DNA of 64,000 bases from assembly GCA_020633995.1 (NCBI GenBank), contig JACKCO010000003.1, positions 73,503 to 137,502 on the forward strand, given 5' to 3'. The position numbers and the translations under genes are program-made. The stretch's first letter is position 1. Each line of letters opens with the position of its first letter. The notes beneath the pieces were generated by a model. It was not told the origin of the DNA. It did no database searches and was given only the letters and a program-made list of their open reading frames with translations. Shown here piece after piece: positions 30,925 to 45,250 of the stretch. The DNA is from Campylobacterota bacterium (lineage in GTDB: Bacteria; Babelota; Babeliae; Babelales; RVW-14).

Positions 30925-33246
30925 ATGAATCACTCAAAATTAATTACTAATGCAAAAAAATGCATTGCGGTGATTGCACTCGTCGTGGCATGGCTTGTAC
31001 CAAGTACTGCTCAAGCTGCTGAAAGTGAGCAGCTTGTTTTTGAACACGATGTTGTTCGATACGGGGATATTATAAGCTTTGAAGCTTTTAAAGATCCAAA
31101 GGCACCACTGCACGGCCATGACCAAAACTACCAGGACACAGACCGCCAACAAGTTGTTGGTCTCAAAGATGATCAGAGTAGCGCAAAAAAACGTAAAAAT
31201 AACTGGTGGCTTATCATGCCTGAATACGGCAAAGACGTTAGCAAACTCCTCGGACGTCCAATAAGACAAGGAACCACAATCAGACTTCGTCACCTCATGA
31301 CAAAAAAATTCCTCCACTCAAGCAATGAGTTTACAAGTCCTAAAAGCCTGGGCCAACAGGTCTTTTGTTTTGGCGAACAGGGTACCGATGGAAACTGGAC
31401 CATCATCCTGGATGCTGACCGCTCAAAAGCTGTTTGGAATATCGAAGACCGATTTGTACTCTTCCACAAACCAACCAGCAGCAACCAGGATATTGAACAA
31501 ACAAGCGGCAAAAAATTTCTCACACTCTTCCCTGAAACCTCTCAAGACATTGGTGATCAGTACATTATTGCAGCTGCTGATGCACCTTATAGCTGGAAAC
31601 TTACCCAGTTTCACCCAGAAACAATCAACAATCGCCCGATGATTGAAAAACTTGAACGCACACGACGTATCAAAAGAGCAACACAGCTCGCTAAAGATGC
31701 TGACGCAGAAGAAAAGAAAGAACTGCAAGATAATTTACAGGAAGCACTTGAAGAATTGGCTGAAGCAAAAAAAGATCGCGAAAAGATGGCTGAAAAAGCA
31801 CAGGCTGCCGAAGATGAACTTGCAAATCAAATTAAGAAGACAGAAGAAACAAAAAAAGAATACATAAAGATTCAAGAAACACTGCGTGACCTAACCAAAC
31901 TTTCGCAAGATGCACTTGCAGAACAAAACCAAAAATTAGATGACGCACTTAAAGCTCAAAAAGAGGCTGAGCAAGCGCTTGAGCAGCAAGAAGATGCAAC
32001 GGATGATGAAGTAGCAGCCCTTAAACAAAAGCTCAAAGACGCTCTTAAGGCTCAAGAGAATGCACAAAAAACAATAGCCGAAATTCAAGCAGACGCTGAG
32101 AAGGCCAAGGATATTAAAAACCAAGAGGCAGACAAAGCGCTCGCTGAAAAAGAAAAAGCTCTGCAAGAAACCATAAAAGCAAAAGAAAAACTTGAAAAAG
32201 AAAAAGCGCTTACCAAAGCAATCATAGAAAAAGAACGTATTGAAATTGTTGAAATAGCAGAACAAGAACGCTATGAAAACCTAGTTAAAGAAGTTTATCC
32301 GCTCATTGCTGAGCAAGACCGCAATGAAATGACTGAACGCAGCGTAAAATACGGCGATAAGATCTACATTAAGTTTGCCTATGGCAACATTCAACTGCAC
32401 TCAATTTATGGTCTTGGGTACAACGAGCTTGAGGACGACTCTGGCAATCAACAAGTGATGGGCTACACAGGCAAAACAGGCAACAGCGTATTTGTTGTCA
32501 AAACTGCTCACGGGCAAGGTGCCGGCTCAGGCGAAGTCAAACATGGTGACATCATACGACTTGAACATTTCAACTCGGAAAAGAATTTGCACGCTGACAA
32601 AGAATCCACAAGTCCTGCCGGATTTGGCGGTGAAGTAAGCTGCTTTGGTAAAAATGGACGTGGTGATGAAGGTGATAACTTCATGATCATGATCGCACAA
32701 AATGGTAACCCAAACAATCCTGCTCCTCTTGGCACACCACTTAAATCAAATCATACATTTATGCTTGCTCACGTTAGCAGCAGCGAAAATACAAAATCAA
32801 GCACCGTCGATGGAAAAGAATTTGTATGCCCTATCCTCAACAGGCAATTCGATATCTATCGAGTTCATGACATTACCGATAATGACAGCGATTTTCACTT
32901 TGTTATCGCACTTTCACCGTCAGAGTGTCACTGGTTTGTTAATGGCTTTCATGACAGTACCACAACAACTGCAAAAGAAAGTCCTAAAGTCGCACAAAAA
33001 CGGGTATTGAGTAGCACCAGCCATGAAGAGGAAGATGATGATGATCAGACCCGTGTTGGCCGACGACAAGATCTTACCGATCGTCGCAAAACACGTGGAC
33101 GCTACAAACGTAAAAAACGCGCTCCTGCAAGCAGGCACAAAAGAGAATACAAACGCTATCGCGTGGCACCTAAGGGACAAAAACGCCGCGGTCCGCTTGG
33201 CAGCAAAAAAGAGCGTCGTCAAGTAGAACGTAGCGAACGAGGTTAA
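30925..33246 (+). CDS. Exported MIR / K-E-rich coiled coil / SDF2-like MIR protein with basic tail (773 aa)
   Basis: The RBS context is CTTAGGGGGGAGGAG. The signal peptide is AVIALVVAWLVPSTAQA. The N-terminal MIR-like region contains YGDIISFEAF, TTIRLRHLMTKKFLHSS and RFVLFHKPTSS. A ~220-aa E/K/A/Q heptad region spans 31650-32300. The second MIR region contains VKYGDKIYIKFAYGNIQLHS and GDIIRLEHFNSEKNLHADKESTSP. The tail is R/K-rich (RRKTRGRYKRKKRAPASRHKREYKRYR...). Confidence 0.9.
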   Translation: MNHSKLITNAKKCIAVIALVVAWLVPSTAQAAESEQLVFEHDVVRYGDIISFEAFKDPKAPLHGHDQNYQDTDRQQVVGLKDDQSSAKKRKNNWWLIMPEYGKDVSKLLGRPIRQGTTIRLRHLMTKKFLHSSNEFTSPKSLGQQVFCFGEQGTDGNWTIILDADRSKAVWNIEDRFVLFHKPTSSNQDIEQTSGKKFLTLFPETSQDIGDQYIIAAADAPYSWKLTQFHPETINNRPMIEKLERTRRIKRATQLAKDADAEEKKELQDNLQEALEELAEAKKDREKMAEKAQAAEDELANQIKKTEETKKEYIKIQETLRDLTKLSQDALAEQNQKLDDALKAQKEAEQALEQQEDATDDEVAALKQKLKDALKAQENAQKTIAEIQADAEKAKDIKNQEADKALAEKEKALQETIKAKEKLEKEKALTKAIIEKERIEIVEIAEQERYENLVKEVYPLIAEQDRNEMTERSVKYGDKIYIKFAYGNIQLHSIYGLGYNELEDDSGNQQVMGYTGKTGNSVFVVKTAHGQGAGSGEVKHGDIIRLEHFNSEKNLHADKESTSPAGFGGEVSCFGKNGRGDEGDNFMIMIAQNGNPNNPAPLGTPLKSNHTFMLAHVSSSENTKSSTVDGKEFVCPILNRQFDIYRVHDITDNDSDFHFVIALSPSECHWFVNGFHDSTTTTAKESPKVAQKRVLSSTSHEEEDDDDQTRVGRRQDLTDRRKTRGRYKRKKRAPASRHKREYKRYRVAPKGQKRRGPLGSKKERRQVERSERG

Positions 33247-33289
33247 GCACAAATTGAGAGCAATAAATAAAAAAATTGGGAGACAAACA

Positions 33290-44158: not shown

Positions 44159-44179
44159 TAAATAAAAAAGGGGAACGTT

Positions 44180-45250
44180 ATGAACTACTCTCGCTTAACA
44201 AAAAGCATTGTCCATCTGCTCAGCATGCTGCTGTGCCTGTCAACAGCTGCGCACGCTGCCCTGACGCAGCCGGCAATGCCAGTTATCGCAAGCTATAACA
44301 AGCAAACTCATCCACAGCAAACCATCAAATATGGCGATGTAATCAATATCCGTCATGCCTACTGCAAGGTGCAACTTGATGGAAGTAGCAAAAAAACATT
44401 TGATTCTGGCAACCGTGAAGTGTTTGGACTGGACGGCAGCGACAACATGCACTCATTTGTTGTGCATGGCCCACACGGCAGTGCCGCTGACTATCAAAAA
44501 GGTGAGCCAGTCAAGCATGGCCACATTATTCGCCTTGAGCCGTACGATTCTAACGCGTTCTTAACCGCCAATCTTAATGTAAGCAGCCCAGACGAGTTTG
44601 GTCCAGAAGTTTCATGCGCAGCAGGTAGCAGCAAGGCGTGTGACTGGATGGTGTTGATGAGCAAAGACGGTATGGCACACACACCAGCAGCTGCAGGCAG
44701 CGCACTGACAACACACGATAATTTTTCACTCTACCACGTAGCAAGCAGCAAAAATGAAGACTCTAAAACCACCTCTGGAAAAATGTTTTTGACTTGGGTT
44801 CCAAACACCGTCTACCAAACAGGTGATGGAAGCATGGGGCACGTCATCTCAATGGGTGATCAAGAAAGCCATTGGTTTGTAAAATCACTCTACGGCCAAG
44901 ATGAAACACCAGACGTTGATGAGCCAGAGGGCCAACAAGTAAGCGTTGCAAAACCAGTTATTTCAGGCGAAGGGCCAGCGATCAGAATAATTGCTGAAGA
45001 AAAAGATCGCGATGCTACACAACCACTTGTTCGTCGTGAACGTCGCCGTCCTGGCAGAACACGAACCATCGAACGTAAATATGGCCGCAAAGGAACTGGC
45101 AGAACACGAGGAGCGCGCTCTGGCGCAGGCATGAGCAGCCGCCGTGACCGTCGAGCAGAACGTGCTACACGTACAAGCACAGCACGCAAAGACAGACGAA
45201 CCGAGCAGCGAGCAAAATATCAAGATTATCTTGAAAGCAAAGGTCGTTAA
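44180..45250 (+). CDS. Exported single MIR-like protein with basic tail (356 aa)
   Basis: The RBS is AAGGGGA. The signal peptide is IVHLLSMLLCLSTAAHA. The diverged MIR module contains IKYGDVINIRHAYCKVQLDG, GHIIRLEPYDSNAFLTANLNVSSP, FSLYHVASSKNEDSKTTSGKMFLTW and ESHWFVKSLY. The tail is RRERRRPGRTRTIERKYGRKGTGRTRGARS...RRDRRAERATRTSTARKDRRTEQR. Confidence 0.88.
   Translation: MNYSRLTKSIVHLLSMLLCLSTAAHAALTQPAMPVIASYNKQTHPQQTIKYGDVINIRHAYCKVQLDGSSKKTFDSGNREVFGLDGSDNMHSFVVHGPHGSAADYQKGEPVKHGHIIRLEPYDSNAFLTANLNVSSPDEFGPEVSCAAGSSKACDWMVLMSKDGMAHTPAAAGSALTTHDNFSLYHVASSKNEDSKTTSGKMFLTWVPNTVYQTGDGSMGHVISMGDQESHWFVKSLYGQDETPDVDEPEGQQVSVAKPVISGEGPAIRIIAEEKDRDATQPLVRRERRRPGRTRTIERKYGRKGTGRTRGARSGAGMSSRRDRRAERATRTSTARKDRRTEQRAKYQDYLESKGR

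Follow-up and report, generated by a model that had tools for sequence, protein, structure and literature searches.

The question raised by this locus is what kind of system is encoded when tandem paralogs share one conserved C-terminal base and differ in their N-terminal modules. Six such genes lie at positions 30925-45250 of a 64,000-nucleotide stretch of contig JACKCO010000003.1 (assembly GCA_020633995.1; forward-strand positions 73,503 to 137,502), which is referred to as the window. The initial annotation had read them as exchangeable heads on a constant base, resembling a diversification cassette. Our analysis favoured, with evenly balanced confidence, a lineage-specific tandem expansion of Sec-exported modular binding proteins of the Babeliales, probably co-transcribed and following a head-stalk-tail design.

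Six consecutive co-oriented paralogs on the + strand were recovered by ORF (open reading frame) listing and translation (Table 1), and the spacing of 21-56 nt given in the initial annotation agreed with gaps of 43, 56, 45, 55 and 21 nt in gene order. A GGAG-type ribosome-binding site was present in each of the five intergenic gaps, and all six genes were complete, each with its own ribosome-binding site, ATG and leader. The single strong terminator noted behind gene 6 was located as a hairpin at 45272-45297 with a 10-bp stem that contains 7 G-C pairs and is followed by a T-run. The putative promoter region, about 490 nt shared divergently with tolQ, held two sigma-70-like matches that reflect the consensus only and occur at a frequency no higher than in shuffled sequence. 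This layout of one strand, short gaps, an upstream region of about 490 nt and a single strong terminator is operon-like, and the six genes are probably co-transcribed. The interval separating genes 4 and 5 contains a G+C-rich hairpin (GGGGAGC-AAT-GCTCCCC) that was weaker than the terminator behind gene 6 and had a poor T-run on the + strand; it may terminate transcription weakly or partially or affect RNA stability, and could split or attenuate the putative operon between genes 1-4 and genes 5-6. The tRNA and Rfam scans of the 64-kb window were both empty.

The C-terminal block described by the initial annotation was present in all six genes, although its length was nearer 240-260 aa than the roughly 210 aa stated, and the motifs quoted for it (YGDxI, IRLEH..NLHSH, GKGDSNDNW, FLTWGG, ESHWFV) were all found in the alignment. 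All-against-all BLASTP gave amino-acid identities of 71-81% among the blocks of genes 2-5 and 27-38% to those of genes 1 and 6, and a profile of the block recovered all six array proteins with E values of 1e-100 to 1e-146. When the six-sequence profile was compared with all PDB sequences, the top match was the Arabidopsis SDF2-like protein 3MAL (E 2e-22), followed by C. elegans 1T9F, the MIR domains of Pmt2/3/4 (about 1e-8) and then IP3 and ryanodine receptors, in agreement with the proposed likeness to SDF2 and the protein O-mannosyltransferases (PMT). The isolated block scored 19-25 bits on Pfam MIR, just under the cut-off of 25.6. An AlphaFold model built from the six sequences was poor (predicted local distance difference test, pLDDT, 55.5; predicted template modelling score, pTM, 0.62), and the top Foldseek matches obtained with this weak model were all MIR domains, at template modelling (TM) scores of just 0.4-0.53. 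The refuting condition named in the initial annotation, a block without a match to MIR/SDF2 profiles, thus did not hold, and the constant block can be assigned by sequence to the MIR beta-trefoil family.

Good alignment of the block to SDF2 was limited to approximately positions 25-147, covering motifs 1 and 2, and the third motif aligned weakly. The last third of the block (VNLYHHNSS...FLTWGG...ESHWFV) was idiosyncratic and lineage-specific. In a HMMER search of 1.84 billion representative proteins, the full 258-position block was matched solely by proteins of this genome; the profile found 1050 proteins at E<=0.001, and among the other matches listed the alignments covered essentially positions 20-147, with a few extending to about 200. 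The description of MIR as a fold of the eukaryotic endoplasmic reticulum (ER) was too narrow, as many of the 1050 matched proteins had bacterial-type partner domains, and the lineage-specific MIR variant itself appears to be new. In the MIR domain of Pmt2, LH(S/T)H histidine pairs and a neighbouring Asp/Asn motif form the mannose and O-Man-peptide sites alpha and beta (PMC7759382). Genes 2-5 retain an intact motif-2 fingerprint (LHSH plus DSNDNW) in their block, as do genes 2-4 in their head MIRs; at motif 1 the block shows a degenerate version (IHAN).

With an Arabidopsis SDF2-like protein as the best solved relative of the block, a chaperone or quality-control function of the SDF2 kind, acting on bacterial or host glycoproteins, has to be weighed. 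The likeness to SDF2 and PMT MIR structures (3MAL, 1T9F; 6ZQP, 6ZQQ, 9E79) extends to profile and fold matches of both block and heads and to the retained motif-2 fingerprint. We nevertheless consider such a function very improbable, because the alignment with SDF2 is confined to the first two MIR motifs and the third part is lineage-specific with long insertions (FLTWGG...ESHWFV), and because the array offers no ER context and no PMT transmembrane domain. In contrast to SDF2 and PMT, these are exported proteins of a bacterial genome that lack ER retention, a glycosyltransferase domain and the PMT domain (PF02366), whose Pfam partner domains are tectonin and FAMeT-like, and whose block sits in large multi-lectin proteins with a polycationic tail fused to it.

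Upstream of the block, the architecture of variable heads on a conserved C-terminal base was confirmed. With Pfam MIR (PF02815), genes 1-4 gave whole-protein scores of 46.9, 33.5, 43.8 and 31.2 bits against a cut-off of 25.6, and their MIR heads were also found by the constant-block profile at E 1e-24 to 1e-30. The tectonin modules of genes 2 and 3 scored 63.7 and 54.7 bits with Tectonin/Hyd_WA (PF19193; cut-off 30), and their closest solved relatives were Laccaria bicolor Tectonin 2 (5FSB, E 5e-12) and fish-egg lectin (4RUQ). These segments span profile positions of approximately 101-195 of 216 only, corresponding to about three blades and roughly half of the Pfam model, so a closed propeller would need dimerisation or another partial propeller. 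The modules previously called beta-sandwiches proved to be Methyltransf_FA (PF12248; FAMeT-like here), with three stretches in gene 2 (205.4 bits) and one in gene 3 (58.8 bits; cut-off 24.2), and the coiled coil of gene 1 matched SMC-type coiled-coil regions. No support was obtained for the pair of 'DUF3395-like' modules in genes 3 and 5, which were without a Pfam match even at E 10 and are termed AWYG modules here. Their comparison by hhalign with the PF11875-positive modules of proteins P0233 and P0200 gave E 0.0012 and 19% probability, and the resemblance to DUF3395/DnaJ-like_C11_C (PF11875) is at the level of a motif only (YG...DVT...G.DP.PG..K). A fold search of the PDB with a model of the AWYG module (pLDDT 66.4) gave no match. 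The module is real, as it recurs in the syntenic protein of a relative (E 3e-7 and 2e-6). Homologue searches returned just 21 matches for gene 4, mostly generic MIR, and solely itself and gene 2 for gene 3; a GTDB genome scan gave two weak MIR matches and a JGI metagenome scan none.

Table 1. Features of the window and parts of the six array genes (nucleotide positions in the window unless given as aa)
Feature	Position	Strand	Description
Second array (six genes)	12-20948	+	leader plus Arg/Thr/Gln-rich tail; tectonin, FAMeT-like, MIR or coiled-coil bodies
Second-array gene	12-2261	+	cut by window edge
Second-array gene	2300-6160	+	
Second-array gene	6226-6987	+	short protein, essentially leader, helical/coiled-coil segment and tail
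Second-array gene	7128-8201	+	short protein, essentially leader, helical/coiled-coil segment and tail
Second-array gene	8286-19703	+	3805 aa; 16 tectonin stretches, 3 FAMeT-like domains, sub-threshold MIR-like stretch
Second-array gene	19797-20948	+	
Glyoxalase-family gene	20985-21578	-	
ftsH	22268-24208	-	
Ankyrin-repeat protein gene	24602-26191	+	
tolQ-tolR-tolA-like-tolB cluster	26933-30436	-	conserved syntenic anchor
Putative promoter region of array	30437-30924	+	divergent with tolQ
Sigma-70-like matches	30772-30800; 30815-30844		
Gene 1	30925-33246	+	773 aa
Gene 1, leader	aa 1-31	+	
Gene 1, MIR head	aa 35-233	+	
Gene 1, coiled coil	~aa 240-445	+	
Gene 1, diverged constant MIR block	32260-33042	+	aa 446-706
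Gene 1, R/K tail	aa 707-773	+	
Gene 2 (H6679_00375)	33290-36937	+	1215 aa; begins with leader
Gene 2, two FAMeT-like beta-sandwiches	33413-34414	+	
Gene 2, MIR head	34430-35059	+	
Gene 2, partial tectonin	~35087-35434	+	
Gene 2, third FAMeT-like domain	35516-35899	+	
Gene 2, constant MIR block	35972-36745	+	
Gene 2, K/E linker and Arg tail	36746-36934	+	
Gene 3 (H6679_00380)	36994-40446	+	1150 aa; begins with leader
Gene 3, AWYG module pair	37078-37779	+	
Gene 3, MIR head	37825-38439	+	
Gene 3, partial tectonin	38506-38829	+	
Gene 3, FAMeT-like domain	38887-39315	+	
Gene 3, constant MIR block	39397-40176	+	
Gene 3, linker and Arg tail	40177-40443	+	
Gene 4 (H6679_00385)	40492-42294	+	600 aa; begins with leader
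Gene 4, MIR head	40573-41211	+	followed by K/E linker
Gene 4, constant MIR block	41242-42021	+	
Gene 4, acidic linker and Arg tail	42022-42291	+	
Hairpin, gene 4/gene 5 gap	42301-42319		scored on - strand
Gene 5	42350-44158	+	602 aa; begins with leader
Gene 5, AWYG module pair	42431-43042	+	
Gene 5, constant MIR block	43118-43897	+	
Gene 5, acidic linker and Arg tail	43898-44155	+	
Gene 6	44180-45250	+	356 aa; minimal member; begins with leader
Gene 6, diverged constant MIR block	44246-44965	+	
Gene 6, Arg tail	44966-45247	+	
Intrinsic terminator behind gene 6	45272-45306	+	AAGGCGGGGACCGAAATCCCCGCCTT then TTTTATTT
DUF4143/AAA_14 ATPase gene	45392-46597	+	listed ORF start 45257
Ankyrin-type paralog, first	46756-48462	-	
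Ankyrin-type paralog, second	50069-53485	-	
3011-aa protein gene	54855-63890	+	

Synonymous (dS) and non-synonymous (dN) substitution was calculated by the Nei-Gojobori method on codon alignments. For the constant block, dS was 0.58 between genes 4 and 5 and 1.1-2.0 when genes 2, 3 and 4/5 were compared with one another; against genes 1 and 6 it was saturated. The dN values were 0.04-0.14 and omega (dN/dS) was 0.06-0.11. Synonymous sites close to saturation together with low omega indicate that the blocks are old duplicates under strong purifying selection and not the products of recent conversion; recent gene conversion as the cause of block conservation was thus ruled out by dS. Between genes 2 and 3, dS was similar in heads (1.6) and block (1.1), and dN was 2.5-fold higher in the heads. 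In a neighbour-joining tree of all MIR modules (no bootstrap), the six C-terminal blocks formed one clade in which genes 1 and 6 branched deeply, and the head MIRs of genes 2-4 fell in a separate clade.

These values bear directly on the cassette proposed in the initial annotation, in which heads would be actively swapped on the constant base via recombination, gene conversion or a mechanism of the diversity-generating retroelement (DGR) or shufflon type. Tandem paralogs with a conserved 3' block and differing 5' modules speak for such a mechanism, and so does the mosaic sharing of modules: genes 3 and 5 have the AWYG pair in common, and genes 2 and 3 share the MIR-tectonin-FAMeT unit. The dS of 0.58-2.0 between constant blocks, however, argues against recent homogenisation, and shared heads were even more diverged than the blocks (the AWYG pairs of genes 3 and 5 agree at 36% of amino acids). 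There were 0 inverted repeats, the best direct DNA repeat had 91% identity over 300 nt, no reverse transcriptase, recombinase, integrase or invertase occurred among the ORFs scanned, and every copy is a complete gene. DGR, shufflon and antigenic-variation systems are characterised by near-identical repeats, a recombinase or reverse transcriptase, silent cassettes and low synonymous divergence, none of which was seen in the array or the ORFs scanned. An active cassette is accordingly most unlikely, and the history suggested by the sequences is one of old duplication with module gain and loss and no evident ongoing diversification mechanism.

A pair of ankyrin-type paralogs further downstream reverses the scheme of the six genes, with a constant N-terminus and a variable C-terminus. 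Their first ~235 residues, including the leader, were about 90% identical and the rest had diverged (55% overall), and a sub-threshold Ank_2 match was found in the first only. This pair may represent a recent partial duplication or conversion.

Behind the block, the linker and Arg tail noted in the initial annotation were found as described, with tails of 60-90 aa that contain 19-35 Arg and have net charges between +17 and +25. The linker ahead of the tail is acidic or rich in Lys/Glu in genes 1-5, and it makes use of Lys while the terminal tail is almost purely Arg; the last 80 aa of gene 4 hold 28 Arg and 0 Lys. Amino-acid identity of the tails was 38-49% among genes 2, 3 and 4/5, with composition kept. 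Tail Arg codons were mixed and used as in the gene bodies, which indicates that selection on the tail acts at the protein level. Tails as a DNA-level repeat or recombination site were ruled out, given the mixed Arg codons and the presence of only low-identity short repeats. A hydrophobic h-region was predicted by a hydropathy rule at the N-terminus of every complete tail-bearing protein, and the housekeeping genes of the window were without such tails. No hydrophobic helix was detected in the last 130 residues of the tail-bearing proteins (maximum Kyte-Doolittle value over 15 aa <=1.0 in 12/12), and among nine proteins scanned there was no match to sorting-domain models (NCBIfam, Pfam) or to defence or other curated NCBIfam families.

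The element shared most widely is the tail and not the MIR block, as it extends to six further genes of the window and to syntenic genes in relatives. The six further genes form a second array (Table 1), so that the combination of leader and tail was found in 12 window genes in total. Two neighbouring proteins delimit this family. The glyoxalase-family protein beside S20 and ftsH has a short basic tail (…GxLRRxARK/AKKY…) that is conserved across relatives (12502-13098 in locus L004; 12598-13188 in L006) and has no leader, so a basic C-terminus alone does not mark an exported family. A leader-bearing protein of 3011 aa, with ankyrin repeats, FAMeT-like and tectonin modules and a weak MIR-like N-terminal module, is without a polybasic tail, and the module set is therefore not strictly tied to the tail.

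The tolQRAB-ftsH-S20-glyoxalase core was conserved in eight related loci. At the position divergent from tolQ, which the six-gene array occupies in the window, leader-bearing proteins with Lys-rich polybasic tails were encoded in five of the eight, and in three of those five with MIR, tectonin or FAMeT-like modules. Locus L008 (GCA_001468855.1) has here a 226-aa protein, a 1021-aa Tectonin and FAMeT protein with 26 Lys in its last 80 residues, and a 261-aa FAMeT protein. Locus L010 has a 342-aa protein of leader, MIR and tail that is the counterpart of gene 6, next to a MIR and Tectonin protein whose C-terminus is K/E-mixed and not polybasic. In L013, a 239-aa protein is accompanied by one of 1038 aa that combines MIR, AWYG and tectonin-like blades (recognised by eye, with no Pfam match) with a Lys-rich tail about 150 aa long. 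The position is taken in L009 and L011 by a protein that is rich in Pro/Thr and has a basic tail, and WD40 or TPR arrays are found there instead in L006 and L012. The same design occurred in unlinked proteins from other samples, namely P0233 (MIR, PF11875 and Tectonin with a K/R tail), P0175 (R tail) and P0002 (K tail). Overall, the design is conserved across a subclade of the Babeliales. Tails were Arg-rich in this genome (44% G+C) and Lys-rich in the relatives (36-40% G+C). The source proteins are labelled 'Epsilonproteobacteria bacterium' by NCBI (H6679_ tags), a label that looks wrong: FtsH shared 66-74% identity with proteins that bear the names Babeliales, Dependentiae or TM6, and the order of tol, ftsH, S20 and glyoxalase genes is that of Babeliales contigs.

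The recurrence of tails on such different proteins allows a broader proposal, which we hold tentatively as a possibility: the polycationic tail would be a clade-wide tag of the Babeliales/Dependentiae secretome, carried by unrelated exported cargos that range from lectin-type proteins (MIR, tectonin, FAMeT-like) and coiled-coil fibrils to USP-type deubiquitinases, fixing them non-covalently to a surface lacking lipopolysaccharide (LPS) or to host membranes, with its ancestral locus beside tolQ. If true, this would constitute a way of sorting or anchoring proteins that differs from the LPXTG, PEP-CTERM and type IX secretion system (T9SS) signals. The literature searched contained no description of polybasic tails in Dependentiae, and the shared polycationic tail with its conserved tolQ-adjacent locus appears to be new and more important than the new MIR variant.

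Alternatively, the tail may not be an anchor at all and may instead serve as a C-terminal secretion or sorting signal for dedicated machinery; it could resemble VirB/VirD4 type IV signals or be a novel tag for crossing the outer membrane. Such a signal would be C-terminal, compositional and not conserved in sequence, and borne by unrelated cargos (lectin-like, coiled-coil, deubiquitinase-like), as the tails are, and a loose RR[ST]R pattern, read by eye, recurred near several C-termini. Positively charged C-terminal tails are type IV secretion signals in Agrobacterium and Bartonella. The array proteins share the net positive C-terminus with type IV substrates and differ in their N-terminal hydrophobic leader, since all carry a predicted Sec-type leader unlike classical type IV or type I substrates. 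Moreover, the tails, 60-120 aa long, far exceed known signals, no cognate machinery was found within the window, and neither a sorting-domain match nor a transmembrane helix of the PEP-CTERM, MYXO-CTERM or LPXTG type was present, and we judge this alternative improbable. A partial parallel is offered by the tripartite LPXTG, PEP-CTERM and MYXO-CTERM tags, in which a C-terminal element ending in basic residues is found on dozens of unrelated cargos per tail type (PMC11980579). The array tails differ from these in having no signature motif, hydrophobic helix or model match and in a basic region of 60-120 aa against a few residues, and the defining features of GlyGly-CTERM and the T9SS C-terminal domain were likewise absent. 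Attachment would be non-covalent and electrostatic, in contrast to the sortase or exosortase processing of LPXTG and PEP-CTERM systems.

In the reading that we favour, each protein consists of a predicted signal peptide, variable lectin-type heads, the conserved MIR trefoil and a flexible charged linker with a disordered polycationic tail, and the tail would hold the protein electrostatically on an anionic surface. The first candidate for this surface is the bacterium's own envelope, with host membranes as the alternative. Anchoring would present the heads outward as a standing repertoire of adhesins with differing reach and ligand specificity toward a protist host, and the variety of heads would derive from old duplication and module gain or loss, not from active switching. 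Attachment to the own envelope is favoured because stalks or spacers precede the tail, giant multi-propeller and pure coiled-coil members occur, and the variable parts are distal to the tail. The 3805-aa giant, the coiled-coil stalks and the Pro/Thr- or Lys/Glu-rich spacers before the tail are adhesin-like traits. In the cultured relative Chromulinavorax, 44% of proteins have signal peptides, export is Sec-reliant and LPS genes are absent (PMC6561590).

Several points weigh against this reading. Localisation of the array proteins is entirely inferred, leaders were judged by a simple hydrophobicity rule alone, and a looser form of the rule did not discriminate, labelling most proteins, even Lon, as leader-bearing, so that a Fisher test of leader versus polybasic tail over the window and the eight related loci gave no usable statistic. 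Tails of such high positive charge are expected to be unfavourable for Sec translocation, and the array proteins would also need a route across the outer membrane. The fingerprints of both MIR motifs, LHSH/DSNDNW included, were degenerate in the block of gene 1 and absent in gene 6, and sugar binding by the constant block would consequently not be universal. Lastly, locus L008 encodes two adjacent USP/UCH-type deubiquitinase-like proteins (17510-18937 and 18981-20183, both on the - strand; Pfam scores 25.7 and 32.7 bits, cut-off 23.9) with a leader and a Lys/Arg-rich tail, whose most basic 40-aa window has a net charge of +19 and +14, respectively. These tail-bearing deubiquitinases must meet host ubiquitin, and a host-directed role therefore fits at least as well as self-anchoring. 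This argument holds unless the bacterium lies free in the host cytosol, and if it does, the self-anchoring and host-directed models converge.

The main rival accordingly regards the proteins as host-directed effectors, whose tails would target anionic host membranes (including mitochondria) or nucleic acids or the nucleolus, or would enable Arg-rich cell-penetrating crossing, and whose tectonin and MIR modules would imitate cytosolic proteins of the host (TECPR1-like, IP3R/RyR-like) and not act as lectins. It draws real support from the deubiquitinase-like pair, for which host ubiquitin can be the only substrate, and from the preference for Arg in terminal tails even though the adjacent linkers are Lys-rich, since Arg is preferred in Arg-rich cell-penetrating and RNA-binding motifs. 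The acidic patch directly ahead of the basic tail in genes 1-5 is also counted in its favour, as is the observation that Dependentiae secrete many eukaryote-like proteins and that Chromulinavorax nests in the host mitochondrion (PMC6561590). Nonetheless, the Lys-rich tails of relatives suggest that charge and not the guanidinium group is conserved, giant size (3805 aa) with many propellers, stalks of coiled coil and Pro/Thr spacers typify surface fibrils and not translocated effectors, and among solved proteins the heads are closest to lectins of extracellular or luminal location. In addition, we know of no translocation machinery for this phylum. On balance, we regard host-directed targeting as unlikely.

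The ankyrin-repeat protein encoded between the tol cluster and ftsH has a leader at its N-terminus and a hydrophobic stretch at its C-terminus (…LLWTTFSGIAGYVAFKVF…), suggestive of a separate class anchored in the membrane. In L004, the same tolB-ftsH interval encodes a protein with a leader and a Lys-rich tail instead. Behind the array terminator lies a gene for a DUF4143/AAA_14 ATPase whose likely true start is the ATG at 45392, because the listed ORF spans the terminator hairpin. The same gene type occurred near the tol cluster in L009 (1087-2250) and L011 (1036-2199).

The anchored, modular design favoured here can be compared with several known systems. Polybasic, polyanion-binding regions of adhesins are represented by the Arg-rich region of Neisseria NHBA and the basic motif of Chlamydia OmcB, where a cluster of Arg or Lys on an exported protein could likewise bind anionic polymers or membranes. 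Those are short internal motifs on lipoproteins or outer-membrane proteins, whereas the array has a long terminal tail on otherwise soluble modular proteins. Tectonin lectins (5FSB, 4RUQ; PF19193/PF06462) are resembled through above-cut-off blades in genes 2 and 3 and in several other window genes, with about three blades in genes 2 and 3 compared with a full six-bladed propeller. The repeat-protein expansions of Dependentiae, such as the 98 ankyrin proteins of Chromulinavorax destructans (PMC6561590), are from the same phylum and also comprise tandem exported paralogs with domains common in eukaryotes. As in those expansions, the flanks of the tol-ftsH core vary between relatives, for example by a WD40 array in L006; the modules differ in being MIR, tectonin and FAMeT-like and not ankyrin or WD40, and the tail went unmentioned in the literature found. 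Fibrillar adhesin-like proteins, composed of an adhesive domain, a stalk and a cell anchor (PMC8286594), are built on the same logic, with binding modules placed distally, then a stalk or spacer and then an element at the C-terminus. By these comparisons, the locus belongs with the Dependentiae expansions of eukaryote-like signal-peptide proteins, and its logic resembles that of fibrillar adhesins. Its MIR, tectonin and FAMeT-like domains are genuine representatives of their families; the locus itself falls outside the SDF2/PMT functional class, the DGR, shufflon and antigenic-variation systems and the LPXTG, PEP-CTERM and T9SS sorting families.

In summary, the conserved base with variable heads can be interpreted as old duplication under purifying selection and not as a diversity-generating machine, which corrects a tempting over-reading of the locus. 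Dependentiae (Babelota) are widespread obligate intracellular parasites of protists, and to our knowledge their attachment to, entry into and manipulation of the host are essentially unknown, with no dedicated effector-delivery system described. The analysis presents a bacterial secretome in which MIR, tectonin and FAMeT-like modules, best known from eukaryotes, are combined. The tailed lectin-like proteins encoded next to tolQ in several genomes provide concrete candidates for the host-contact layer of these bacteria, together with a testable idea of how exported cargos may be retained or targeted.

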